IMG/VR virus record: IMGVR_UViG_2645727715_000002 | Source of the DNA: a virus | Lineage: Duplodnaviria; Heunggongvirae; Uroviricota; Caudoviricetes | Length of the DNA stretch: 36,924 nt | Reading direction: 5' to 3' (one strand) | Notes under the pieces: generated by a model | Database searches by the model: none | Told to the model about the DNA's origin: nothing | Seen by the model: only the letters and a program-made list of their open reading frames with translations | Made by a program: the position numbers and the translations under genes | Shown here: in pieces, positions 4,162 through 36,121 of the stretch | Numbering within the stretch: position 1 is the first letter of the stretch | How the letters are laid out: every line of letters begins with the position of its first letter

Positions 4162-4188
4162 AAAAAAATCGCCCTCACATTAGAGGGC
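4162..4188 (-). terminator. Candidate rho-independent terminator in the leftward (pL) transcript between ral and ea10
   Basis: Stem gccctc (4171-4176) / gagggc (4183-4188) with a 6-nt loop; read on the minus strand it is followed by a 7-T run (A-run 4162-4168 on the plus strand). Confidence 0.45.
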
Positions 4189-5676: not shown

Positions 5677-5742
5677 AGTATCACCGCCAGTGGTATCTGT
5701 GTCAACACCGCCAGAGATAATTTACTCACCGCAGATGGTTAT
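5677..5742 (-). promoter_or_regulatory. pL promoter with OL1-OL2-OL3 operators
   Basis: OL1 tatcaccgccagtggta at 5679-5695 and OL2 at 5703-5719 match the lambda operators; -10 (rc GATACT) at 5677-5682 and -35 (rc TTGACA) at 5700-5705; OL3-like site at about 5726-5742. Confidence 0.75.
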
Positions 5743-6954: not shown

Positions 6955-7671
<717 letters not shown>

Positions 7672-7678
7672 TTAAATC

Positions 7679-7744
7679 TATCACCGCAAGGGATAAATAT
7701 CTAACACCGTGCGTGTTGACTACTTTACCTCTAGCGGTGATAAT
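7679..7744. promoter_or_regulatory. OR3-OR2-OR1 operators with divergent pRM and pR promoters
   Basis: OR3 tatcaccgcaagggata 7679-7695 and OR2 taacaccgtgcgtgttg 7702-7718 match lambda; OR1 7726-7742 reads tacctctagcggtgata (one base differs from lambda TACCTCTGGCGGTGATA); pR -35 TTGACT 7716-7721 and -10 GATAAT 7739-7744. Confidence 0.85.
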
Positions 7745-7759
7745 AGTTGCATGTACTAA

Positions 7760-7969
<210 letters not shown>

Positions 7970-7976
7970 ATAACAC

Positions 7977-8008
7977 CGCTCTTACACATCCCAGCCCTGA
8001 AAAAGGGC
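7977..8008 (+). promoter_or_regulatory. nutR (boxA CGCTCTTA plus boxB GCCCTGAAAAAGGGC)
   Basis: boxA at 7977-7984 and boxB hairpin at 7994-8008 match the lambda nutR consensus. Confidence 0.8.
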
Positions 8009-8087
8009 ATCAAATTAAACCACACCTATGGTGTATGCATTTATTTGCATACATTCAATCAATTGTTATCTAAGGAAATACTTACAT

Positions 8088-8333
8088 ATGGTTCGTGCAA
8101 ACAAACGCAACGAGGCTCTACGAATCGAGAGTGCGTTGCTTAACAAAATCGCAATGCTTGGAACTGAGAAGACAGCGGAAGCTGTGGGCGTTGATAAGTC
8201 GCAGATCAGCAGGTGGAAGAGGGACTGGATTCCAAAGTTCTCAATGCTGCTTGCTGTTCTTGAATGGGGGGTCGTTGACGACGACATGGCTCGATTGGCG
8301 CGACAAGTTGCTGCGATTCTCACCAATAAATAA
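8088..8333 (+). CDS. cII: CII transcriptional activator, truncated at residue 81 (lacks the C-terminal 16 aa relative to lambda)
   Basis: MVRANKRNEALRIESALLNK...AAILTNK then TAA at 8331-8333; the missing tail KRPAATERSEQIQMEF is encoded immediately downstream in the +1 frame (ORF 8095..8382), consistent with a 1-nt insertion (aaaaaa to aaataaa). Confidence 0.8.
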   Translation: MVRANKRNEALRIESALLNKIAMLGTEKTAEAVGVDKSQISRWKRDWIPKFSMLLAVLEWGVVDDDMARLARQVAAILTNK

Positions 8334-8414
8334 ACGCCCGGCGGCAACCGAGCGTTCTGAACAAATCCAGATGGAGTTCTGAGGTCATTACTGGATCTAT
8401 CAACAGGAGTCATT

Positions 8415-9314
8415 ATGACAAATACAGCAAAAATACTCAACTTCGGCAGAGGTAACTTTGCCGGACAGGAGCGTAATGTGGCAGATCTCGATGATGGTTA
8501 CGCCAGACTATCAAATATGCTGCTTGAGGCTTATTCGGGCGCAGATCTGACCAAGCGACAGTTTAAAGTGCTGCTTGCCATTCTGCGTAAAACCTATGGG
8601 TGGAATAAACCAATGGACAGAATCACCGATTCTCAACTTAGCGAGATTACAAAGTTACCCGTCAAACGGTGCAATGAAGCCAAGTTAGAACTCGTCAGAA
8701 TGAATATTATCAAGCAGCAAGGCGGCATGTTTGGACCAAATAAAAACATCTCAGAATGGTGTATCCCTCAAAACGAGGGAAAATCCCCTAAAACGAGGGA
8801 TAAAACATCCCTCAAATTGGGGGATTGCTATCCCTCAAAACAGAGGGACACAAAAGACACTATTACAAAAGAAAAAAGAAAAGATTATTCGTCAGAGAAT
8901 TCTGGCGAATCCTCTGACCAGCCAGAAAACGATCTTTCTGTGGTGAAACCGGATGCTGCAATTCAGAGCGGCAGCAAGTGGGGGACAGCAGAAGACCTGA
9001 CCGCCGCAGAGTGGATGTTTGACATGGTGAAGACCATCGCGCCATCAGCCAGAAAACCGAATTTTGCAGGGTGGGCTAACGATATCCGCCTGATGCGTGA
9101 ACGTGACGGACGTAACCACCGCGACATGTGCGTGCTGTTCCGCTGGGCATGCCAGGACAACTTCTGGTCCGGTAACGTGCTTAGTCCGGCCAAACTCCGC
9201 GACAAGTGGACTCAGCTCGAAATCAACCGTAACAAGCAACAGGCAGTCGTGACAGCCAGCAAACCAAAACTCGACCTGACAAACACAGACTGGATTTACG
9301 GGGTGGATCTATGA
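8415..9314 (+). CDS. O: Replication initiator O, 299 aa
   Basis: Translation matches lambda O; contains the ori iterons. Confidence 0.95.
   Translation: MTNTAKILNFGRGNFAGQERNVADLDDGYARLSNMLLEAYSGADLTKRQFKVLLAILRKTYGWNKPMDRITDSQLSEITKLPVKRCNEAKLELVRMNIIKQQGGMFGPNKNISEWCIPQNEGKSPKTRDKTSLKLGDCYPSKQRDTKDTITKEKRKDYSSENSGESSDQPENDLSVVKPDAAIQSGSKWGTAEDLTAAEWMFDMVKTIAPSARKPNFAGWANDIRLMRERDGRNHRDMCVLFRWACQDNFWSGNVLSPAKLRDKWTQLEINRNKQQAVVTASKPKLDLTNTDWIYGVDL
8762..8890. other. ori-lambda: four iterons plus an A/T-rich unwinding region inside O
   Basis: Four direct repeats of the type atccctcaaaacgaggga between about 8762 and 8848, followed by an A-rich block (caaaagaaaaaagaaaagatt). Confidence 0.85.
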
Positions 9315-10372: not shown

Positions 10373-10813
10373 ATGAAAAAACTAACCTTTGAAATTCGAT
10401 CTCCAGCACATCAGCAAAACGCTATTCACGCAGTACAGCAAATCCTTCCAGACCCAACCAAACCAATCGTAGTAACCATTCAGGAACGCAACCGCAGCTT
10501 AGACCAAAACAGGAAGCTATGGGCCTGCTTAGGTGACGTCTCTCGTCAGGTTGAATGGCATGGTCGCTGGCTGGATGCAGAAAGCTGGAAGTGTGTGTTT
10601 ACCGCAGCATTAAAGCAGCAGGATGTTGTTCCTAACCTTGCCGGGAATGGCTTTGTGGTAATAGGCCAGTCAACCAGCAGGATGCGTGTAGGCGAATTTG
10701 CGGAGCTATTAGAGCTTATACAGGCATTCGGTACAGAGCGTGGCGTTAAGTGGTCAGACGAAGCGAGACTGGCTCTGGAGTGGAAAGCGAGATGGGGAGA
10801 TCGGGCTGCATGA
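10373..10813 (+). CDS. ninB: NinB (Orf-family recombination mediator), 146 aa
   Basis: MKKLTFEIRSPAHQQNAIHAVQQILPDPTKP... matches lambda NinB; ATG at 10373. Confidence 0.85.
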   Translation: MKKLTFEIRSPAHQQNAIHAVQQILPDPTKPIVVTIQERNRSLDQNRKLWACLGDVSRQVEWHGRWLDAESWKCVFTAALKQQDVVPNLAGNGFVVIGQSTSRMRVGEFAELLELIQAFGTERGVKWSDEARLALEWKARWGDRAA

Positions 10814-11337
10814 CTATCAAATCAAATACGCCAGCACACGACAAGGACTGCTGGCAAACGCCGCTTTGGCTTTTTGATGCACTGGATATTGAGTTTGGAT
10901 TCTGGCTGGATTCGGCAGCGAGCGACAAAAATGCTCTGTGTGCTCACTGGCTAACTGAGGCCGACGACGCGCTCAATTCTGAGTGGGTAAGCCACGGTGC
11001 AATCTGGAATAACCCACCGTACAGCAATATCAGGCCGTGGGTGGAAAAAGCCGCTGAGCAGTGCATACAACAGCGACAGACGGTAGTGATGCTTGTGCCA
11101 GAGGATATGTCAGTCGGATGGTTCAGCAAGGCTCTGGAGAGTGTCGACGAAGTTCGCATTATCACTGATGGACGGATTAATTTTATCGAACCATCGACAG
11201 GGTTGGAGAAGAAGGGAAACAGCAAAGGCTCCATGCTGCTGATTTGGCGACCGTTCATCAGTCCTCGACGGATGTTTACTACCGTATCCAAAGCGGCATT
11301 GATGGCGATCGGGCAGGGCGTCAGGAGGGCGGCATGA
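10810..11337 (+). CDS. Phage Dam-like DNA N6-adenine methyltransferase (about 175 aa)
   Basis: Translation from the ATG at 10810 ([26 protein letters not shown]...NPPYSN...) has the NPPY catalytic motif of N6-adenine methyltransferases; ATGA overlap with the ninB stop; occupies the position of lambda ninC. Confidence 0.7.
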
Positions 11338-13218: not shown

Positions 13219-14316
13219 TTAGAACTGGTAAACCAGACCTACAGCAACGATGTCATCAGTGCTTACACCGAGTGCTTTAGTGAAGTCATTTTTGTCAAGC
13301 AGGTTGATTTTGTAATCAACGAAAGTAGACATATTTTTGTTGAAGTAATAGGTTGCACCTACATCAACATATTTGACTAAGTCCTGATCGCCCCATACTC
13401 CAAGATCCTTACCTTTAGATTGCAGGTAAGCAACGGACGGACGCAGACCGAAATCGAACTGATATTGTGCAACAGCTTCGAAGTTTTGGGCTTTATTAGC
13501 AACGAAGTGATCAGCAAATACAGTCATATTCTGGGTTTCAGAATAGGTAGTGGCCAGGTAAATGTTGTTAGCGTCATATTTCAGACCTGCGGCCCAAACT
13601 TCTGCATTTTTACCGGAAGCAAATACTTCAGGAAGAACTTTCCCTGCATTAACTTGAGTGTCGGTACGATCAGATTTCGCATAAGTTGCACCGATACCGA
13701 ATCCTTCGTATTCATAGGTAGCAGAGAAACCGAAGCCATCACCGTTACCTTCAGTGTAGTTATCGAAATCGCTACGATCGTTTTTGCCTTGGTACTGAGC
13801 AGCAAAATTCAGACCATCAACCAGACCAAAGAAGTCGTTGTTACGATAGGTTGCAACACCAGTTGCACGTTGAGTCATGAACACGTCGGTTTGAGTCCAA
13901 GTGTCACCACCGAATTCTGGCAGGACGTCAGTCCACGCACCGATGTCGTATGCTACACCGTAGTTACGGCCGTAATCGATGGAGCCGTAGTCACCGAATT
14001 TCAGGCCAGCGAAGGCAAGACGGGTTTTATCTTTGGAGGAACCTTGAGATTCAGCGCGGTTGCCTTTGAATTCATATTCCCACTGACCGAAACCAGTCAG
14101 TTGATCGTTGATTTGGGTTTCACCTTTGAAGCCAAGACGGGCATAAGTAGTATCACCATCATCTGCATCATTAGAGGAGAAGTAGTGCTTAGCATTAACT
14201 TTCCCGTACAGATCCAGCTTGTTACTGTCTTTATTATAAATTTCAGCTGCCTGAGCAGACATCGCCATCAGTACTGATGCAGCTACAGCAGAAATTGCCA
14301 CTGTTAATTTTTTCAT
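13219..14316 (-). CDS. OmpC/NmpC/Lc-family general porin (phage-borne lysogenic-conversion porin), 365 aa
   Basis: Signal peptide [23 protein letters not shown], 16-strand porin hallmarks and C-terminal ...VGLVYQF; placed between Q and the lysis genes as nmpC is in DLP12 and lc in PA-2. Confidence 0.9.
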
Positions 14317-17099: not shown

Positions 17100-17329
17100 A
17101 TCATTTTGCGGGTCCTTTCCGGCGATCCGACAGGTTACGGGGCGGCGACCTCGCGGGTTTTCGCTATTTATGAAAATTTTCCGGTTTAAGGCATTTCCGT
17201 TCTTCTTCGTTGTAACTTAATGTTTTTATTTAAAATACCCCCTGAAAAGAAAGGAAACGACAGGTGCTGAAAACGGGCTTTTTTGGCCTCTGTCGTTTCC
17301 TTTCTCTGTTTTTGTCCGTGGAATGAACA
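17100..17329. other. cos region (cosQ-cosN-cosB); cosN 12-nt cohesive-end sequence GGGCGGCGACCT at 17140-17151
   Basis: The cohesive-end sequence and flanking bases (…acggggcggcgacctcgcgggttttcgctatttatgaaaattttccggtttaaggc…) match lambda cos as recalled; sits immediately upstream of Nu1. Confidence 0.8.
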
Positions 17330-17849
17330 ATGGAAGTCAACAAAAAGCAGCTGGCTGACATTTTCGGTGCGAGTATCCGTACCATTCAGAACTGGCAGGA
17401 ACAGGGAATGCCCGTTCTGCGAGGCGGTGGCAAGGGTAATGAGGTGCTTTATGACTCTGCCGCCGTTATAAGATGGTATGCCGAAAGGGATGCTGAAATT
17501 GAGAACGAAAAGCTGCGCCGGGAAGTTGAAGAACTGCGGCAGGCCAGCGAGACAGATCTCCAGCCAGGGACTATTGAGTACGAACGCCATCGACTTACGC
17601 GTGCGCAGGCCGACGCACAGGAACTGAAGAATGCCAGAGACTCCGCTGAAGTGGTGGAAACCGCATTCTGTACTTTCGTGCTGTCGCGGATCGCAGGTGA
17701 AATTGCCAGTATTCTCGACGGGATCCCCCTCTCGGTGCAGCGGCGTTTTCCGGAACTGGAAAACCGACATGTTGATTTCCTGAAACGGGATATCATCAAA
17801 GCCATGAACAAAGCAGCCGCGCTGGATGAACTGATACCGGGGTTGCTGA

Positions 17850-17875
<26 letters not shown>
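17330..17875 (+). CDS. nu1: Terminase small subunit Nu1, 181 aa
   Basis: MEVNKKQLADIFGASIRTIQNWQEQGMPVLRGGGKGNEVLYDSAAVI... matches lambda Nu1. Confidence 0.95.
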
Positions 17876-21557
<3,682 letters not shown>

Positions 21558-21577
<20 letters not shown>

Positions 21578-22877
21578 TCTCCCGCATATTGCCAGTATGG
21601 CCTTTAATGAGCCGCTGATGCTTGAACCCGCCTATGCGCGGGTTTTCTTTTGTGCGCTTGCAGGCCAGCTGGGGATCAGCCGCCTGACGGATGCGGTGTC
21701 CGGTGACAGCCTGACTGCCGGAGAGGCACCCGCGACGCTGGCGTTATCCGGTAATGATGACGGGCCACGACAGGCCCGCAGTTATCAGGTCATGAACGGC
21801 ATCGCCGTGCTGCCGGTGTCCGGCACGCTGGTCAGCCGGACGCGGGCGCTGCAGCCGTACTCGGGGATGACCGGTTACAACGGCATTATCGCCCGTCTGC
21901 AACAGGCTGCCAGCGACCCGATGGTGGACGGCATTCTGCTCGATATGGACACGCCAGGCGGAATGGTGGCGGGGGCATTTGACTGCGCTGACATCATCGC
22001 CCGTGTGCGAGACATAAAACCGGTATGGGCGCTGGCCAACGACATGAACTGCAGTGCAGGTCAGCTGCTTGCCAGTGCCGCCTCCCGGCGTCTGGTCACG
22101 CAGACCGCCCGGACAGGCTCCATCGGCGTCATGATGGCTCACAGTAATTACGGTGCTGCCCTGGAGAAACAGGGGGTGGAAATCACGCTGATTTACAGCG
22201 GCAGCCATAAGGTGGATGGCAATCCCTACAGCCATCTTCCGGATGACGTCCGGGAGACACTGCAGTCCCGGATGGACGCAACCCGCCAGATGTTTGCGCA
22301 GAAGGTGTCGGCATATACCGGCCTGTCTGTGCAGGCTGTGCTGGATACCGAGGCTGCAGTGTACAGCGGTCAGGAGGCCATTGATGTCGGACTGGCTGAT
22401 GAACTTGTTAACAGCACCGATGCGATCACCGTCATGCGTGATGCACTGGATGCGCGTAAATCCCGTCTCTCAGGAGGGCGAATGACCAAAGAGACTCAAT
22501 CAACAACTGTTTCAGCCACTGCTTCGCAGACTGACGTTACTGACGTGGTGCCAGCGACGGAGGGCGAAAACGCCAGCGCGGCGCAGCCGGACGTGAACGC
22601 GCAGATCACCGCTGCGGTTGCGGCAGAAAACAGCCGCATTATGGGGATCCTCAACTGTGAGGAGGCTCACGGACGCGAAGAACAGGCCCGCGTGCTGGCA
22701 GAAACCCCCGGTATGACCGTGGAAACGGCCCGCCGCATTCTGGCAGCTGCACCACAGAGTGCACAGGCGCGCAGTGACACTGCGCTGGATCGTCTGATGC
22801 AGGGGGCACCGGCACCGCTGGCTGCAGGTAACCCGGCATCTGATGCCGTTAACGATTTGCTGAACACACCAGTGTAA
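21558..22877 (+). CDS. C: Capsid assembly protease C (with in-frame nested scaffold Nu3 at its 3' end), GTG start
   Basis: From GTG 21558 (GAGGAG RBS upstream) the translation VTAELRNLPHIASMAFNEPLMLEPAYARVFF… matches lambda gpC; the upstream extension of the ORF lies inside B and is not coding. Confidence 0.85.
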
Positions 22878-22886
22878 GGGATGTTT

Positions 22887-23220
22887 ATGACGAGCAAAGA
22901 AACCTTTACCCATTACCAGCCGCTGGGCAACAGTGACCCGGCACATACGGCAACCGCGCCCGGCGGATTGAGTGCGAAAGCGCCTGCAATGACCCTGCTG
23001 ATGCTGGACACCTCCACCCGTAAGCTGGTTGCGTGGGATGGCACCACCGACGGTACTGCCGTTGGCATTCTGGCGGTTGATGCTGACCAGACCAGCACCA
23101 CGCTGACGTTCTACAAGTCCGGCACGTTCCGTTATGAGGATGTGCTCTGGCCGGAGGCTGCCAGCGACGAGACGAAAAAAACGGACCGCGTTTGCCGGAA
23201 CGGCAATCAGCATCGTTTAA
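22887..23220 (+). pseudogene. D: Head decoration protein D with a +1 frameshift near the C-terminus (A7 run 23175-23181)
   Basis: [27 protein letters not shown]… matches lambda gpD to …DETKK, then leaves frame; the expected ending [12 protein letters not shown]-stop is encoded in the +1 frame ending 23218-23220. Confidence 0.75.
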
Positions 23221-23269
23221 CCTTACCCTTCATCACTAAAGGCCGCCTGTGCAGCTATTTACGATTTTT

Positions 23270-24295
23270 ATGTCGATGTACACAACCGCCCAGCTGCTGG
23301 CGGCAAATGAGAAGAAATTTAAGTTTGATCCGCTGTTTCTGCGTCTCTTTTTCCGTGAGAGCTATCCCTTCACCACGGAGAAAGTCTATCTCTCACAAAT
23401 TCCGGGACTGGTAAACATGGCGCTGTACGTTTCGCCGATTGTTTCCGGTGAGGTTATCCGCTCCCGTGGCGGCTCCACCTCTGAATTTACACCGGGATAT
23501 GTCAAGCCGAAGCATGAGGTGAATCCGCAGATGACCCTGCGTCGCCTGCCGGATGAAGATCCGCAGAATCTGGCGGACCCGGCTTACCGCCGCCGTCGCA
23601 TCATCATGCAGAACATGCGAGACGAAGAGCTGGCCATTGCTCAGGTCGAAGAGATGCAGGCAGTTTCTGCTGTGCTTAAGGGCAAATACACCATGACCGG
23701 TGAAGCCTTCGATCCGGTTGAGGTGGATATGGGCCGCAGTGCGGCGAACAACATCACACAGTCCGGTGGTACGGAGTGGAGCAAGCGTGACAAGTCCACG
23801 TATGACCCGACCGACGATATCGAAGCCTATGCGCTGAACGCCAGCGGAGTGGTGAATATCATCGTGTTTGATCCGAAAGGCTGGGCGCTGTTCCGTTCCT
23901 TCAAAGCCGTCAAGGAGAAGCTGGATACCCGTCGCGGCTCTAATTCCGAGCTGGAGACAGCGGTAAAAGACCTGGGCGAAGCGGTGTCCTATAAGGGGAT
24001 GTATGGCGATACGGCGATCGTCGTGTATTCCGGACAGTACGTGGAAAACGACGTCAAAAAGAACTTCCTTCCGGACAACACGATGGTGCTGGGGAACACT
24101 CAGGCACGCGGTCTGCGCACCTATGGCTGCATTCAGGATGCGGACGCACAGCGCGAAGGTATTAACGCCTCTGCCCGCTACCCGAAAAACTGGGTGACCA
24201 CCGGCGATCCGGCGCGTGAGTTCACCATGATTCAGTCAGCACCGCTGATGCTGCTGGCTGACCCTGATGCGTTCGTGTCCGTACAACTGGCGTAA
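23270..24295 (+). CDS. E: Major capsid protein E, 341 aa
   Basis: [41 protein letters not shown]… matches lambda gpE. Confidence 0.95.
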
Positions 24296-24336
24296 TCATG
24301 GCCCTTCGGGGCCATTTTCTCTCTGTGGAGGAGTCT

Positions 24337-24732
24337 ATGACGAAAGATGAACTGATTGCCCGTCTTCAGGTGCTGGGTGAGCAACTGAACCGTGATGTCA
24401 GCCTGACGGGGACGAAAGAAGAACTGGTGCTCCGTGTGGCAGAGCTGGAAGAGGAGCTTGATGACACGGATGACGCTGCCGGTCAGGACACATCTGTCAG
24501 CCCGGAAAATGCGCTGACCGGACATGAAAATGAGGTGGTATCAGCGCAGCCGGATACCGTGATTGATACGGCTGCTCTGGTCACGGTCGTGGCACTGGTG
24601 ACGCTGCATACTGATGCACTTCACGCCACGCGGGATGAGCCTGTGGCATTTGTGCTGCCGGGAACGGCGTTTCGTGTCTCTGCCGGTGTGGCAGCCGAAA
24701 TGACAGAACATGGCCTGGCCAGAATGCAATAA
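24337..24732 (+). CDS. FI: DNA packaging protein FI
   Basis: MTKDELIARLQVLGEQLNRDVSLTGTKEEL… matches lambda FI; GGAGG RBS upstream. Confidence 0.85.
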   Translation: MTKDELIARLQVLGEQLNRDVSLTGTKEELVLRVAELEEELDDTDDAAGQDTSVSPENALTGHENEVVSAQPDTVIDTAALVTVVALVTLHTDALHATRDEPVAFVLPGTAFRVSAGVAAEMTEHGLARMQ

Positions 24733-24743
24733 CGGGAGGCGCT

Positions 24744-25097
24744 GTGGCTGATTCCGATAACCTGTTCGATGCTGCCATTGCCCGCGCCGATGAAACGATA
24801 CGCGGGTACATGGGAACGTCAGCCACCATGACATCCGGTGAGCTGTCCGGTGCTGTGATACGTGGTGTTTTTGATGACCCTGAAAATATCAGCTATGCCG
24901 GACAGGGGGTGCGCGTTGAAGGCTCCAGCCCGTCCCTGTTTGTCCGGACTGATGATGTGCGGCAGCTGCGGCGTGGAGACACACTGACCATCGGCGAGGA
25001 AAACTTCTGGGTGGACCGGATTTCGCCGGATGATGGCGGAAGCTGTCATCTCTGGCTTGGGCGTGGCGTGCCGCCTGCCGTTAACCGTCGCCGCTGA
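24744..25097 (+). CDS. FII: Head completion protein FII, 117 aa
   Basis: Translation matches lambda FII. Confidence 0.9.
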   Translation: MADSDNLFDAAIARADETIRGYMGTSATMTSGELSGAVIRGVFDDPENISYAGQGVRVEGSSPSLFVRTDDVRQLRRGDTLTIGEENFWVDRISPDDGGSCHLWLGRGVPPAVNRRR

Positions 25098-25108
25098 AAG
25101 GGGGATGT

Positions 25109-25687
25109 ATGGCCATAAAAGGTCTTGAGCAGGCCGTTGAAAACCTCAGCCGTATCAGCAAAACGGCGGTGCCTGGTGCCGCCGCAATGGCCATTAACCG
25201 CGTTGCGTCATCCGCGATATCGCAGTCTGCGTCACAGGTTGCCCGTGAGACAAAGGTACGCCGGAAACTGGTAAAGGAAAGGGCCAGGCTGAAAAGGGCC
25301 ACGGTCAAAAATCCGCAGGCCAGAATCAGGGTTAACCGGGGGGATTTGCCCGTAATCAAGCTGGGTAACGCGCGGGTTGTCCTTTCCCGCCGCAGACGTC
25401 GTAAAAAGGGGCAGCGTTCATCCCTGAAAGGTGGCGGCAGCGTGCTTGTGGTGGGAAACCGTCGTATTCCCGGCGCGTTTATTCAGCAACTGAAAAATGG
25501 CCGGTGGCATGTCATGCAGCGTGTGGCCGGGAAAAACCGTTACCCCATTGATGTGGTGAAAATCCCGATGGTGGTGCCGCTTACCACGGCGTTTAAACAG
25601 AATATTGAACGGATACGGCGTGAACGTCTTCCGAAAGAGCTGGGCTATGCGCTGCAGCATCAACTGAGAATGGTAATAAAGCGATGA
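25109..25687 (+). CDS. Z: Tail completion protein Z, 192 aa
   Basis: Translation matches lambda Z. Confidence 0.9.
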   Translation: MAIKGLEQAVENLSRISKTAVPGAAAMAINRVASSAISQSASQVARETKVRRKLVKERARLKRATVKNPQARIRVNRGDLPVIKLGNARVVLSRRRRRKKGQRSSLKGGGSVLVVGNRRIPGAFIQQLKNGRWHVMQRVAGKNRYPIDVVKIPMVVPLTTAFKQNIERIRRERLPKELGYALQHQLRMVIKR

Positions 25688-26079
25688 AACATACTGAACT
25701 CCGTGCAGCCGTACTGGATGCACTGGAGAAGCATGACACCGGGGCGACGCTTTTTGATGGTCGCCCCGCTGTTTTTGATGAGGCGGATTTTCCGGCAATT
25801 GCCGTTTATCTCACCGACGCTGAATACACGGGCGAAGAGCTGGACAGTGATACCTGGCAGGCGGAGCTGCATATTGAAGTTTTCCTGCCTGCTCAGGTGC
25901 CGGATTCAGAGCTGGATTCGTGGATGGAGTCCCGGATTTATCCGGTGATGAGCGATGTCCCGGCACTGTCAGATTTGATCACCAGTATGGTGGCCAGTGG
26001 CTATGACTACCGGCGCGACGATGATGCGGGCCTGTGGAGTTCAGCCGATCTGACTTATGTCATTACCTATGAAATGTGA
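25684..26079 (+). CDS. U: Tail terminator protein U, 131 aa
   Basis: Translation matches lambda U; overlaps the Z stop. Confidence 0.9.
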
Positions 26080-26086
26080 GGACGAT

Positions 26087-26827
26087 ATGCCTGTACCAAA
26101 TCCAGTAATGCCGGTGAAAGGGGCCGGGACCACACTGTGGGTTTATAAGGGGAACGGTGACCCTTATGCGAACCCGCTTTCAGACGTTGACTGGTCGCGT
26201 CTGGCTAAAGTTAAAGACCTGACGCCCGGCGAACTGACCGCTGAGTCCTATGACGACAGCTATCTCGATGATGAAGATGCGGACTGGACTGCGACCGGGC
26301 AGGGGCAGAAATCTGCCGGAGATACCAGCTTCACGCTGGCGTGGATGCCCGGAGAGCAGGGGCAGCAGGCGCTGCTGGCGTGGTTTAATGAAGGGGATAC
26401 CCGTGCCTATAAAATCCGCTTCCCGAACGGCACGGTCGATGTGTTCCGCGGCTGGGTCAGCAGTATCGGTAAGGCGGTGACGGCGAAGGAAGTGATCACC
26501 CGCACGGTGAAAGTCACCAACGTGGGACGTCCGTCGATGGCAGAAGATCGCAGCACGGTAACAGCGGCAACCGGCATGACCGTGACGCCTGCCAGCACTT
26601 CGGTGGTGAAAGGGCAGAGCACCACGCTGACCGTGGCATTCCAGCCGGAAGGCGCAACCGACAAGAGCTTCCGTGCGGTGTCTGCGGATAAAACAAAAGC
26701 CACCGTGTCGGTCAGTGGTATGACCATCACCGTGAAAGGTGTTGCTGCAGGCAAGGTCAACATTCCGGTTGTATCCGGTAATGGTGAACTTGCTGTGGTT
26801 GCAGAAATCACCGTCACCGACAGTTAA
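26087..26827 (+). CDS. V: Major tail protein V, 246 aa
   Basis: [22 protein letters not shown]… matches lambda V, including the C-terminal Ig-like domain. Confidence 0.9.
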
Positions 26828-26842
26828 TCCGGAGAGTCAGCG

Positions 26843-27265
26843 ATGTTCCTGAAAACCGAATCATTTGAATATAACGGTGTGAGCGTCACGCTTTCTGAAC
26901 TGTCAGCCCTGCAGCGAATTGAGCATCTCGCCCTGCTGAAACGGCAGGCAGAACAGGCGGAGTCAGACAGCAACCGGAAGTTTACTGTGGAAGACGCCAT
27001 CAGAACCGGCGCGTTTCTGGTGGCGATGTCCCTGTGGCATAACCATCCGCAGAAGACGCAGATGCCGTCCATGAATGAAGCCGTTAAACAGATTGAGCAG
27101 GAAGTGCTTACCACCTGGCCCACGGAGGCAATTTCTCATGCTGAAAACGTGGTGTACCGGCTGTCTGGTATGTATGAGTTTGTGGTGAATAATGCCCCTG
27201 AACAGACAGAGGACGCCGGGCCCGCAGAGCCTGTTTCTGCGGGAAAGTGTTCGACGGTGAGCTGA
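26843..27265 (+). CDS. G: Tail assembly chaperone G, 140 aa
   Basis: Translation matches lambda G. Confidence 0.9.
   Translation: MFLKTESFEYNGVSVTLSELSALQRIEHLALLKRQAEQAESDSNRKFTVEDAIRTGAFLVAMSLWHNHPQKTQMPSMNEAVKQIEQEVLTTWPTEAISHAENVVYRLSGMYEFVVNNAPEQTEDAGPAEPVSAGKCSTVS
27241..27247 (+). other. Programmed -1 ribosomal frameshift slippery heptamer G GGA AAG (G to G-T fusion)
   Basis: GGGAAAG in the correct phase near the 3' end of G, with the T reading frame open in the -1 frame downstream; this is the canonical lambda G-T recoding site. Confidence 0.85.
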
Positions 27266-27681
27266 GTTTTGCCCTGAAACTGGCGCGTGAGATGGGGCGA
27301 CCCGACTGGCGTGCCATGCTTGCCGGGATGTCATCCACGGAGTATGCCGACTGGCACCGCTTTTACAGTACCCATTATTTTCATGATGTTCTGCTGGATA
27401 TGCACTTTTCCGGGCTGACGTACACCGTGCTCAGCCTGTTTTTCAGCGATCCGGATATGCATCCGCTGGATTTCAGTTTGCTGAACCGGCGTGAGGCTGA
27501 CGAAGAGCCTGAAGATGATGTGCTGATGCAGAAAGCGGCAGGGCTTGCCGGAGGTGTCCGCTTTGGCCCGGACGGGAATGAAGTTATCCCTACTTCCCCG
27601 GATGTGGCGGACATGACGGAGGATGACGTAATGCTGATGACAGTATCAGAAGGGATCGCAGGAGGAGTCCGGTATGGCTGA
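27247..27681 (+). CDS. T: Tail assembly chaperone T portion of the G-T frameshift product
   Basis: The -1 frame ORF downstream of the slippery site matches lambda T. Confidence 0.8.
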   Translation: MFDGELSFALKLAREMGRPDWRAMLAGMSSTEYADWHRFYSTHYFHDVLLDMHFSGLTYTVLSLFFSDPDMHPLDFSLLNRREADEEPEDDVLMQKAAGLAGGVRFGPDGNEVIPTSPDVADMTEDDVMLMTVSEGIAGGVRYG

Positions 27682-30235
27682 ACCGGTAGGCGATCTGGTC
27701 GTTGATTTGAGTCTGGATGCGGCCAGATTTGACGAGCAGATGGCCAGAGTCAGGCGTCATTTTTCCGGTACGGAAAGTGATGCGAAAAAAAACAGCGGCA
27801 GTCGTTGAACAGTCGATGAACCGGCAGGCGCTGGCTGCACAGAAAGCGGGAATTTCCGTCGGGCAGTATAAAGCCGCCATGCGTATGCTGCCTGCGCAGT
27901 TCACTGACGTGGCCACGCAGCTTGCAGGCGGGCAAAGTCCGTGGCTGATCCTGCTGCAACAGGGGGGTCAGGTGAAGGACTCCTTCGGCGGGATGATCCC
28001 CATGTTCCGGGGGCTTGCCGGTGCGATCACCCTGCCGATGGTGGGGGCCACCTCGCTGGCGGTGGCGACCGGTGCGCTGGCGTATGCCTGGTATCAGGGC
28101 AACTCAACCCTGTCCGATTTCAACAAAACGCTGGTCCTTTCCGGCAATCAGGCCGGGCTGACGGCAGATCGTATGCTGGTCCTGTCCAGAGCCGGGCAGG
28201 CGGCAGGGCTGACGTTTAACCAGACCAGCGAGTCACTCAGCGCACTGGTTAAGGCGGGGGTAAGCGGTGAGGCTCAGATTGCGTCCATCAGCCAGAGTGT
28301 GGCGCGTTTCTCCTCTGCATCCGGCGTGGAGGTGGACAAGGTCGCTGAAGCCTTCGGGAAGCTGACCACTGACCGACGTCGGGCGTGACAGCGATGGCGC
28401 GCCAGTTCCATAACGTGACGGCGGAGCAGATTGCGTATGTTGCTCAGTTGCAGCGTTCCGGCGAAGAAGCCGGGGCATTGCAGGCGGCGAACGAGGCCGC
28501 GACGAAAGGGTTTGATGACCAGACCCGCCGCCTGAAAGAGAACATGGGCACGCTGGAAACCTGGGCAGACAGGACAGCACGGGCATTCAAATCCATGTGG
28601 GATGCGGTGCTGGATATTGGTCGTCCTGATACCGCGCAGGAGATGCTGATTAAGGCAGAGGCCGCGTTTAAGAAAGCGGACGATATCTGGAATCTGCGCA
28701 AGGATGATTATTTTGTTAACGATGAAGCGCGGGCGCGTTACTGGGATGATCGTGAAAAGGCCCGTCTTGCGCTTGAAGCCGCCCGAAAGAAGGCTGAGCA
28801 GCAGAGTCAACAGGACAAAAATGCGCAGCAGCAGAGCGATACCGAAGCGTCACGGCTGAAATATACCGAAGAGGCGCAGAAGGCTTACGAACGGCTGCAG
28901 ACGCCGCTGGAGAAATATACCGCCCGTCAGGAAGAACTGAACAAGGCACTGAAAGACGGGAAAATCCTGCAGGCGGATTACAACACGCTGATGGCGGCGG
29001 CGAAAAAGGATTATGAAGCGACGCTGAAAAAGCCGAAACAGTCCGGCGTGAAGGTGTCTGCGGGCGATCGTCAGGAAGACAGTGCTCATGCTGCCCTGCT
29101 GACGCTTCAGGCAGAACTCCGGACGCTGGAGAAGCATGCCGGAGCAAATGAGAAAATCAGCCAGCAGCGCCGGGATTTGTGGAAGGCGGAGAGTCAGTTC
29201 GCGGTACTGGAGGAGGCGGCGCAACGTCGCCAGCTGTCTGCACAGGAGAAATCCCTGCTGGCGCATAAAGATGAGACGCTGGAGTACAAACGCCAGCTGG
29301 CTGCACTTGGCGACAAGGTTACGTATCAGGAGCGCCTGAACGCGCTGGCGCAGCAGGCGGATAAATTCGCACAGCAGCAACGGGCAAAACGGGCCGCCAT
29401 TGATGCGAAAAGCCGGGGGCTGACTGACCGGCAGGCAGAACGGGAAGCCACGGAACAGCGCCTGAAGGAACAGTATGGCGATAATCCGCTGGCGCTGAAT
29501 AACGTCATGTCAGAGCAGAAAAAGACCTGGGCGGCTGAAGACCAGCTTCGCGGGAGCTGGATGGCAGGCCTGAAGTCCGGCTGGAGTGAGTGGGAAGAGA
29601 GCGCCACGGACAGTATGTCGCAGGTTAAAAGTGCAGCCACGCAGACCTTTGATGGTATTGCACAGAATATGGCGGCGATGCTGACCGGCAGTGAGCAGAA
29701 CTGGCGCAGCTTCACCCGTTCCGTGCTGTCCATGATGACAGAAATTCTGCTTAAGCAGGCAATGGTGGGGATTGTCGGGAGTATCGGCAGCGCCATTGGC
29801 GGGGCTGTTGGTGGCGGCGCATCCGCGTCAGGCGGTACAGCCATTCAGGCCGCTGCGGCGAAATTCCATTTTGCAACCGGAGGATTTACGGGAACCGGCG
29901 GCAAATATGAGCCAGCGGGGATTGTTCACCGTGGTGAATTTGTCTTCACGAAGGAGGCAACCAGCCGGATTGGCGTGGGGACTCTTTACCGGCTGATGCG
30001 CGGCTATGCCACCGGCGGTTATGTCGGTACACCGGGCAGCATGGCAGACAGCCGGTCGCAGGCGTCCGGGACGTTTGAGCAGAATAACCATGTGGTGATT
30101 AACAACGACGGCACGAACGGGCAGATAGGTCCGGCTGCTCTGAAGGCGGTGTATGACATGGCCCGCAAGGGTGCCCGTGATGAAATTCAGACACAGATGC
30201 GTGATGGTGGCCTGTTCTCCGGAGGTGGACGATGA
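27674..30235 (+). pseudogene. H: Tail tape-measure protein H, interrupted by a +1 (A8 run) and a -1 (CC) frameshift (or sequencing errors)
   Basis: ATG 27674 gives MAEPVGDLVVDLSLDAARFDEQMARVRRHFSGTESDAKK then a stop; the lambda-matching sequence continues in frame 0 (27717..28388) and again in frame 2 (28385..30235); junctions at A8 run 27785-27792 and CC 28373-28374. Confidence 0.85.
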
Positions 30236-30561
30236 AGACCTTCCGCTGGAAAGTGAAACCCGGTATGGATGTGGCTTCGGTCCCTTCTGTAAGAAAGGTG
30301 CGCTTTGGTGATGGCTATTCTCAGCGAGCGCCTGCCGGGCTGAATGCCAACCTGAAAACGTACAGCGTGACGCTTTCTGTCCCCCGTGAGGAGGCCACGG
30401 TACTGGAGTCGTTTCTGGAAGAGCACGGGGGCTGGAAATCCTTTCTGTGGACGCCGCCTTATGAGTGGCGGCAGATAAAGGTGACCTGCGCAAAATGGTC
30501 GTCGCGGGTCAGTATGTTGCGTGTTGAGTTCAGCGCAGAGTTTGAACAGGTGGTGAACTGA
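30232..30561 (+). CDS. M: Tail tip protein M, 109 aa
   Basis: Translation matches lambda M. Confidence 0.9.
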   Translation: MKTFRWKVKPGMDVASVPSVRKVRFGDGYSQRAPAGLNANLKTYSVTLSVPREEATVLESFLEEHGGWKSFLWTPPYEWRQIKVTCAKWSSRVSMLRVEFSAEFEQVVN

Positions 30562-31259
30562 TGCAGGATATCCGGCAGGAAACACTGAATGAATGCACCC
30601 GTGCGGAGCAGTCGGCCAGCGTGGTGCTCTGGGAAATCGACCTGACAGAGGTCGGTGGAGAACGTTATTTTTTCTGTAATGAGCAGAACGAAAAAGGTGA
30701 GCCGGTCACCTGGCAGGGGCGACAGTATCAGCCGTATCCCATTCAGGGGAGCGGTTTTGAACTGAATGGCAAAGGCACCAGTACGCGCCCCACGCTGACG
30801 GTTTCTAACCTGTACGGTATGGTCACCGGGATGGCGGAAGATATGCAGAGTCTGGTCGGCGGAACGGTGGTCCGGCGTAAGGTTTACGCCCGTTTTCTGG
30901 ATGCGGTGAACTTCGTCAACGGAAACAGTTACGCCGATCCGGAGCAGGAGGTGATCAGCCGCTGGCGCATTGAGCAGTGCAGCGAACTGAGCGCGGTGAG
31001 TGCCTCCTTTGTACTGTCCACGCCGACGGAAACGGATGGCGCTGTTTTTCCGGGACGTATCATGCTGGCCAACACCTGCACCTGGACCTATCGCGGTGAC
31101 GAGTGCGGTTATAGCGGTCCGGCTGTCGCGGATGAATATGACCAGCCAACGTCCGATATCACGAAGGATAAATGCAGCAAATGCCTGAGCGGTTGTAAGT
31201 TCCGCAATAACGTCGGCAACTTTGGCGGCTTCCTTTCCATTAACAAACTTTCGCAGTAA
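30561..31259 (+). CDS. L: Tail tip protein L, 232 aa
   Basis: Translation matches lambda L, including the C-terminal Cys cluster. Confidence 0.9.
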   Translation: MQDIRQETLNECTRAEQSASVVLWEIDLTEVGGERYFFCNEQNEKGEPVTWQGRQYQPYPIQGSGFELNGKGTSTRPTLTVSNLYGMVTGMAEDMQSLVGGTVVRRKVYARFLDAVNFVNGNSYADPEQEVISRWRIEQCSELSAVSASFVLSTPTETDGAVFPGRIMLANTCTWTYRGDECGYSGPAVADEYDQPTSDITKDKCSKCLSGCKFRNNVGNFGGFLSINKLSQ

Positions 31260-31264
31260 ATCCC

Positions 31265-32008
31265 ATGACACAGACAGAATCAGCGATTCTGGCGCACGCC
31301 CGGCGATGTGCGCCAGCGGAGTCGTGCGGCTTCGTGGTAAGCACGCCGGAGGGGGAAAGATATTTCCCCTGCGTGAATATCTCCGGTGAGCCGGAGGCGT
31401 ATTTCCGTATGTCGCCGGAAGACTGGCTGCAGGCAGAAATGCAGGGTGAGATTGTGGCGCTGGTCCACAGCCACCCCGGTGGTCTGCCCTGGCTGAGTGA
31501 GGCCGACCGGCGGCTGCAGGTGCAGAGTGATTTGCCGTGGTGGCTGGTCTGCCGGGGGACGATTCATAAGTTCCGCTGTGTGCCGCATCTCACCGGGCGG
31601 CGCTTTGAGCACGGTGTGACGGACTGTTACACACTGTTCCGGGATGCTTATCATCTGGCGGGGATTGAGATGCCGGATTTTCATCGCGAGGATGACTGGT
31701 GGCGTCACGGTCAGAATCTCTATCTGGATAATCTGGAGGCCACAGGGCTGTATCAGGTGGCGTTGTCAGCGGCGCAGCCGGGCGATGTGCTGCTGTGCTG
31801 TTTTGGTTCATCGGTGCCGAATCATGCCGCCATTTACTGTGGTGACGGTGAGCTGCTGCACCATATTCCTGAACAACTGAGTAAACGAGAGAGGTACACC
31901 GACAAATGGCAGCGACGCACACACTCCCTCTGGCGTCACCGGGAATGGCACGCATCTGCCTTTACGGGGATTTGCAACGATTTGGCCGCCGCATCGACCT
32001 TCGTGTGA
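31265..32008 (+). CDS. K: Tail tip assembly protein K (full ORF 247 aa; an internal ATG at 31409 would give 199 aa)
   Basis: The HSHP motif of a JAB/MPN-type domain lies in the N-terminal part, followed by an NlpC/P60-like region; matches lambda K. Confidence 0.8.
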   Translation: MTQTESAILAHARRCAPAESCGFVVSTPEGERYFPCVNISGEPEAYFRMSPEDWLQAEMQGEIVALVHSHPGGLPWLSEADRRLQVQSDLPWWLVCRGTIHKFRCVPHLTGRRFEHGVTDCYTLFRDAYHLAGIEMPDFHREDDWWRHGQNLYLDNLEATGLYQVALSAAQPGDVLLCCFGSSVPNHAAIYCGDGELLHHIPEQLSKRERYTDKWQRRTHSLWRHREWHASAFTGICNDLAAASTFV

Positions 32009-32577
32009 AAACGGGGGCTGAAGCCATCCGCGCACTGGCCACACAGCTCCCGGCGTTTCGTCAGAAACTGAGCGACGGCTGGTATCAGGTACGGATTGCC
32101 GGGCAGGATGTCAGCACGTCCGGATTAACGGCGCAGTTACATGAGACTCTGCCTGATGGCGCTGTGATTCATATTGTTCCCAGAGTCGCCGGGGCCAAGT
32201 CAGGTGGCGTATTCCAGATTGTCCTGGGAGCAGCCGCCATTGCCGGATCATTCTTTACCGCCGGAGCCACCCTTGCAGCATGGGGGGCAGCCATTGGGGC
32301 CGGTGGTATGACCGGCATCCTGTTTTCTCTCGGTGCCAGTATGGTGCTCGGTGGTGTGGCGCAGATGCTGGCACCGAAAGCCAGAACTCCCCGTACACAG
32401 ACAACGGATAACGGCAAACAGAACACCTATTTCTCCTCACTGGATAACATGGTTGCCCAGGGCAATGTTCTGCCTGTTCTGTACGGTGAAATGCGCGTGG
32501 GGTCACGCGTGGTTTCTCAGGAGATCAGCACGGCAGACGAAGGGGATGGTGGTCAGGTTGTGGTGATTGGTCGCTGA
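31906..32577 (+). CDS. I: Tail tip assembly protein I, 223 aa
   Basis: Translation matches lambda I; overlaps the 3' end of K by 103 nt. Confidence 0.9.
   Translation: MAATHTLPLASPGMARICLYGDLQRFGRRIDLRVKTGAEAIRALATQLPAFRQKLSDGWYQVRIAGQDVSTSGLTAQLHETLPDGAVIHIVPRVAGAKSGGVFQIVLGAAAIAGSFFTAGATLAAWGAAIGAGGMTGILFSLGASMVLGGVAQMLAPKARTPRTQTTDNGKQNTYFSSLDNMVAQGNVLPVLYGEMRVGSRVVSQEISTADEGDGGQVVVIGR

Positions 32578-32634: not shown

Positions 32635-36121
<3,487 letters not shown>

Follow-up and report, generated by a model that had tools for sequence, protein, structure and literature searches.

A one-base insertion in the cII gene and oop terminator of a lambda-immunity prophage contig from Escherichia coli D92/09 is most likely a sequencing artefact

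The closest described relative of the locus considered here is the cII gene of bacteriophage lambda (NC_001416 38360-38653; Pfam family PF05269; PDB entries 1XWR, 1ZPQ and 1ZS4), which has 97 codons, the last 16 of which (82-97) encode the degradation tag recognized by FtsH. The 3′ end of the gene is covered from the opposite strand by the antisense oop RNA, 52 bases of which overlap cII and which terminates at the tO hairpin (PMC5869508). Engineered CII truncations carried on plasmids or phage provide a second point of reference (Kobiler et al. 2002 PNAS 99:14964; Hayes laboratory 2018, PMC5869508). In the part of PMC5869508 that treats this series, with reference to Kobiler 2002, CII1-82 is degraded very slowly by FtsH, CII1-81 is functional and CII1-80 is not, and CII1-81, lacking the 16-residue FtsH tag, is the shortest truncation reported there as functional. 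A third reference is the error profile of the Ion Torrent PGM (Bragg et al. 2013, PMC3623719), on which indels are about 10 times as frequent as substitutions, runs of 6 bases are called with an accuracy of about 68% and calls of a non-existent base, mainly in A and T flows, are 'not improbable'. High-frequency single-base indels occur at about one per kb of reference on this platform, are mostly A/T insertions, and lie in homopolymers in only 29% of cases (PMC3623719).

The window, by which we mean the whole 36,924-nt stretch of DNA analyzed, corresponds to the entire contig LEKZ01000085.1 of assembly GCA_001038025.1 from E. coli D92/09, an isolate from Crohn's disease. Its immunity region has the gene order cI, cro, cII, O, P and is colinear with lambda 37231-41084. 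As in lambda, cII is positioned between cro/tR1 and the replication gene O and is accompanied by antisense oop, and cro, nutR/tR1, O, P, oop and pO are neighbors common to both. Gene and flanks are identical to lambda bar one base: across 670 nt (window 7990-8660) the sole difference is an extra T at 8331, which blastn against NC_001416 places between lambda 38602 and 38603. The features of this region, in window coordinates, are as follows.

8088-8333, plus strand: cII as assembled, 81 codons equal to lambda CII 1-81, then TAA at 8331-8333
8331, plus strand: extra T within the lambda A6 run (AAAAAA to AAATAAA)
8332-8382, plus strand: remainder of cII, codons 82-97 KRPAATERSEQIQMEF and TGA, in the +1 frame; the FtsH degradation tag in lambda
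8327-8404, minus strand: antisense oop RNA, overlapping the 3′ end of cII, with its 5′ end at 8404 (lambda 38675)
8322-8357, minus strand: oop terminator tO, with an intact GC-rich hairpin and the U-tract UUUAUUUAUU as compared to UUUUUUAUU in lambda
8412-8440, minus strand: promoter-like site at the pO position (TTGAGT, 17 nt, CATAAT), identical to lambda

The window letters at 8322-8333 read ...ACC AAT AAA TAA, so that the extra T at codon 82 creates a TAA stop and shifts codons 82-97 out of frame. The full 97-codon frame with its C-terminal FtsH tag is thus absent as assembled, while 8332-8382 (AAA CGC ... TTC TGA) encodes KRPAATERSEQIQMEF and a stop in the +1 frame. The 81-residue product is identical at 81/81 positions to lambda CII residues 1-81 in chain A of PDB 1XWR, and a Pfam hit to PF05269 (Phage_CII) is recorded for it. 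The original prediction had held that the cII frame stops at 8331-8333, that the residues following K81 are encoded downstream in the +1 frame, and that a 1-nt insertion turning A6 into AAATAAA costs the protein its 16 C-terminal residues; all of this is borne out by the open reading frame at 8088-8333 (81 codons plus stop), by the coding content of 8332-8382 and by the alignment to lambda.

What the original prediction overlooked is that the T at 8331 is at the same time a base of the oop terminator's U-tract. Read on the minus strand, the UUUUUUAUU of lambda becomes UUUAUUUAUU in the window, that is, UUUUUU in lambda tO as opposed to UUUAUUU as assembled. The hairpin is untouched: a scan gives 11 pairs at 8357-8332, with a 9-pair GC-rich core ending at 8335. 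The U-tract directly following it is therefore interrupted in the assembly, although a pattern scan still calls the element terminator-like. Window and lambda agree exactly in the promoter-like site, in the 5′ end of the RNA, in its two hairpins and in its antisense placement at the cII 3′ end; a pO, a transcript of about 77 nt running opposite that end and a GC-rich hairpin at its terminus are all present. The identification of oop draws on the fold and on the promoter-like site and hairpin being found in both window and lambda; no Rfam family, for oop or anything else, matched in 7600-8800. The ends of oop in the window are presumed ones, placed by way of lambda coordinates; tO also serves as the 'T0' terminator of cloning vectors.

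The origin of the sequence bears directly on how the extra T should be read. For D92/09, an Ion Torrent PGM 314 chip yielded 399,241 reads, a coverage of 16.5x, which were assembled into 343 contigs with 5,893 CDS in 5.08 Mb (PMC4588619). This genome-wide CDS count is inflated, which suggests that the same fragmentation affecting the prophage genes extends outside the prophage. A prophage of strain T43 (NZ_CP106954.1), residing at the lambda attachment site and with all morphogenesis genes annotated as intact, matches the structural half of the window at 99.9% identity, and it was on this half, compared to T43, that private indels and substitutions were counted, relatives of the immunity region being only about 99% identical. 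In the roughly 15 kb at 17140-32400 the comparison with T43 gives about 7 substitutions as against at least 10 indels (A5 to A6, A6 to A7, T6 to T5, A6 to A7, A7 to A8, C3 to C2 and T5 to T6, in addition to a cluster at 23253-23269). The sites concerned in the morphogenesis genes, with a further one in gene J, are the following.

18261-18348, plus strand: terminase gene A, two private insertions (A5 to A6 at 18261-18266, A6 to A7 at 18342-18348), gene in three frames
20228-20232, plus strand: portal gene B, private T6 to T5, gene in two frames
23175-23181, plus strand: head-decoration gene D, private A6 to A7, last 12 residues lost
23253-23269, plus strand: cluster between D and E beside a GC hairpin (T7 to TATTT, GGG to G, T7 to T5)
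27785-28375, plus strand: tape-measure gene H, private A7 to A8 at 27785-27792 and C3 to C2 at 28373-28375, gene in three frames
34993, plus strand: tail-tip gene J, 1-base insertion TT to TAT, gene in two frames

Altogether A (17850-19777), B (19977-21577), D (22881-23214), H (27674-30235) and J (32638-36121) carry seven frameshifts, mostly at homopolymers. Differences from T43 are found in 3/8 of the 6-base runs, 3/4 of the 7-base runs and 2/51 of the 5-base runs, and in almost none of the shorter ones; among homopolymers of at least 6 bases, 6 of 12 differ. The encoded proteins are in contrast barely affected. In tblastn searches with the T43 proteins, protein identity was about 98-100% for the larger fragments of genes A, B, D and H and for residues 1-787 of J, and 95-100% when all fragments outside the out-of-frame stretches are taken together. 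The short pieces beside the indels, which are out of frame between paired indels, were of lower identity, and the C-terminal fragment of J, in a diverged region, was 74% identical. Fifteen other window proteins are 100% identical to their T43 counterparts. Almost certainly, these seven frameshifts stem from Ion Torrent errors and do not mark pseudogenes. The D-E cluster also includes a G to A change, and its version in the window was present in no complete E. coli genome, the best full-length match being 96.1% identical; the two records nearest to it have homopolymer differences of their own. Within this cluster, the change of T7 to TATTT at 23256 resembles the cII event in that a homopolymer is broken by the complementary base beside a GC hairpin, after which a T run follows.

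Private indels are also seen in and around the immunity region. An A6 to A7 change at 4162 is private with respect both to lambda and to the 99% identical prophage of S1-CAM-02-A, the closest relative for this region. In the OL3 operator a private C insertion at 5725, by which TTTATCACCGC reads TTTACTCACCGC, is absent from lambda and from S1-CAM-02-A and is probably another sequencing error. Between lambda and S1-CAM-02-A themselves there are 86 substitutions, but 0 indels, in the 3.85-kb stretch cI to ninB.

The insertion allele was then sought in other collections. A 55-nt query centered on the site, with the T at position 29 such that wild-type alleles would seed as well and identity bands would separate the alleles, was run by BLAST against 5,426 complete E. 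coli genomes. All 477 flank-matching records aligned at 98.2% (54/55) and none at 100%, giving the T allele in 0 of 477. Phage records did not contain it either, the best matches there being 99.7% identical and differing by the one gap. Searching IMG/VR and the JGI metagenomes for exact copies of the allele with the T gave 0 matches, and a pattern scan of IMG/VR and of a collection with one genome per species, with 5-8 bases allowed between the flanks, retrieved 146 loci of which 145 had AAAAAA, one AAAAA and none the T. The original prediction had proposed a comparison with related prophages as a check; none carries the T, an intact 97-codon cII frame is present in 128 of the 135 loci that could be evaluated, and the arrangement of the window in 0 of 135. 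Across all collections searched, the variant is private to the assembly of the window.

Several by-products of these searches should be mentioned. An exact-protein look-up of the 81-residue CII retrieved, besides the window's own record, nine independent short-read Logan/ENA contigs (our loci L148-L156) with a lambda-type cII, ending after codon 81 with AATAAA, AATAAAA or AATAAAAA. These were considered as support for the allele and rejected, since each breaks off within the A run and lacks a stop codon. Such contig ends suggest that the run is a recurrent break point of the assembly graph, perhaps due to a mosaic junction between lambdoid prophages or to homopolymer noise. An A5 allele belongs to locus L002 (IMGVR_UViG_2531839468_000008, 848-880), where it replaces A6 at the cII run; this locus and another, L098, both appear to be out of frame further upstream in cII as well, and these anomalies are probably more homopolymer errors of draft assemblies. 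The 3′ end of lambda cII together with tO was also encountered in unrelated genomes (L120-L146), among them Bradyrhizobium, Shewanella, Kitasatospora and Ruminococcus, mostly on low-coverage contigs, some of which are about 48.5 kb in size, and a pSEVA plasmid likewise carries the cII 3′ end and tO. This points to lambda contamination or spike-in, in addition to the use of the lambda terminator in vectors.

Judging from sequence comparison, we consider it very probable that the T at 8331 is a sequencing artefact, one of the errors of this contig, since it is unique to a low-coverage Ion Torrent contig with many one-base errors. The source is a low-coverage PGM draft, the differences from a near-identical reference are dominated by indels, and the variant is private. 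The original prediction had conceded in passing that the insertion could also be a sequencing error; with 16.5x PGM data, other private indels in the same contig and an allele confined to this assembly, what was a fallback becomes much the likelier reading. A base-calling or consensus error in the draft would have produced the T. Besides mis-measuring long homopolymers, the PGM makes spurious insertions of single A or T bases, and at 16.5x such errors reach the consensus; an A6/T6 run beside the GC-rich tO hairpin is a site prone to them. With the described PGM errors the cII event shares its nature, the insertion of one A/T base at a long A/T run, its place beside a GC-rich hairpin, and its occurrence in an assembly whose other differences from a near-identical relative are mostly indels. 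It departs from the typical run-length error in that a different base is placed inside the run, which is a rarer kind. That the T is not a simple run-length miscall, the commonest PGM error, is the main point against an artefact, and there is only one comparable different-base insertion in the near-identical part of the contig (at 23256). Together with the C inserted in OL3 at 5725, however, that case shows that private events other than changes of run length do occur in this contig. For any one 6-base run of this contig the probability of being miscalled is on the order of 40% and A/T insertions are documented for the platform, whereas a real insertion not due to slippage, at this very position in a gene otherwise equal to that of lambda, is orders of magnitude less likely. 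What the D92/09 prophage has is most likely a normal 97-codon lambda cII, A6 run included, and an unaltered oop terminator.

It could also be that the T is real, which we regard as unlikely. The prophage would then make CII(1-81) without the FtsH tag, a protein that would tetramerize, bind DNA and activate pE, pI and paQ. Being long-lived, it would push infection towards lysogeny, and the change from U6 to U3AU3 could at the same time weaken termination at tO or alter the 3′ end or stability of OOP RNA; we hold these consequences to be jointly as unlikely as the T itself. The deposited sequence does read this way, the crystal structure of the CII-DNA complex (1ZS4) was obtained with a chain of 83 residues, an A run broken by a T is atypical of homopolymer-length errors, and both the tO hairpin and pO are intact. 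Against this, the allele was found nowhere else, miscalls affect half of the runs with at least 6 bases in this 16.5x PGM draft, judged by a 99.9% identical and intact relative, natural relatives show no indels in the cI-ninB module, and spurious A/T insertions are documented for the PGM. As for the mechanism put forward originally, that a tail-less CII would be more stable and bias the decision towards lysogeny, it agrees with what PMC5869508 reports, and it is the feature itself that is probably not real. The product predicted from the window as assembled would correspond to CII1-81 in the part of the laboratory series described by Kobiler et al. 2002 and in PMC5869508. The laboratory truncations were made on plasmids and phage, as opposed to a frameshift that would also change the oop terminator and that probably does not exist. 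That the lambda-immunity prophage of D92/09 naturally possesses a minimal active, FtsH-resistant CII(1-81) together with an altered oop terminator is accordingly improbable.

A considerably less likely explanation is that all one-base indels of the contig are real, cII included, and that the prophage is a decaying remnant in which the truncation of cII has no regulatory meaning. Cryptic lambdoid prophages are common in E. coli, and eight frameshifts spread over cII, A, B, D, H and J would fit such a remnant. In mutation-accumulation spectra, though, substitutions outnumber indels in runs many-fold, even in mismatch-repair mutants. The window shows the reverse against its 99.9% relative, with at least 10 indels to about 7 substitutions over 15 kb, the indels being concentrated in runs of 5 or more bases, and its protein fragments are still about 100% identical. 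The inflated CDS count suggests moreover that fragmentation reaches beyond the prophage. An excess of indels over substitutions with half of the long homopolymers changed and the proteins untouched is the pattern of the PGM, not of real decay. Finally, programmed +1 ribosomal frameshifting at AAA-UAA-A, by which the stop would be bypassed and full-length CII still be made, can practically be dismissed and was rejected, because, even if a stop codon in the A-site and a slippery tRNA-Lys could in principle allow low-level slippage into a downstream frame that stays open as far as the regular TGA, the tRNA-Lys in the P-site would need to re-pair, poorly, with AAU, no stimulatory element is apparent, and, the arrangement occurring at none of the 135 evaluable loci and the plain in-frame gene at 128 of them, nothing indicates a conserved recoding site.

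Apart from the cII site, the window differs from lambda in gene content. In the place of rexA/rexB, between cI and N, there is a gene for a 301-aa protein with a BstA_C domain (PF26567; 5931-6836, minus strand). BstA is an abortive-infection defense protein, and the presence of a BstA-type gene instead of rexA/rexB looks like a swap of defense cassettes in a lambda-immunity prophage. The Logan contig L149 and several complete E. coli genomes share this arrangement. A porin gene (PF00267, OmpC/NmpC-like; 13219-14316, minus strand) is located between Q and the lysis genes, and a gene for a Dam-type N6-adenine methyltransferase (10810-11337, plus strand) stands in place of lambda ninC; these two genes represent cargo or mosaic departures from the lambda genome.

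Were the truncation real after all, a single base would alter both the half-life of CII and its antisense regulator, biasing the phage towards lysogeny. It would be a natural case of a truncation already characterized in the laboratory and involve no new mechanism, the mildly new aspect being that one base touches both the stability of CII and the tO terminator of the antisense RNA. In the likely case that the base is an error, the lesson is a practical one: neither in the D92/09 assembly nor in other PGM drafts should frameshifts be taken as biology, and cII, A, B, D, H and J, pseudogenes in appearance, are to be treated as intact genes until they are resequenced.
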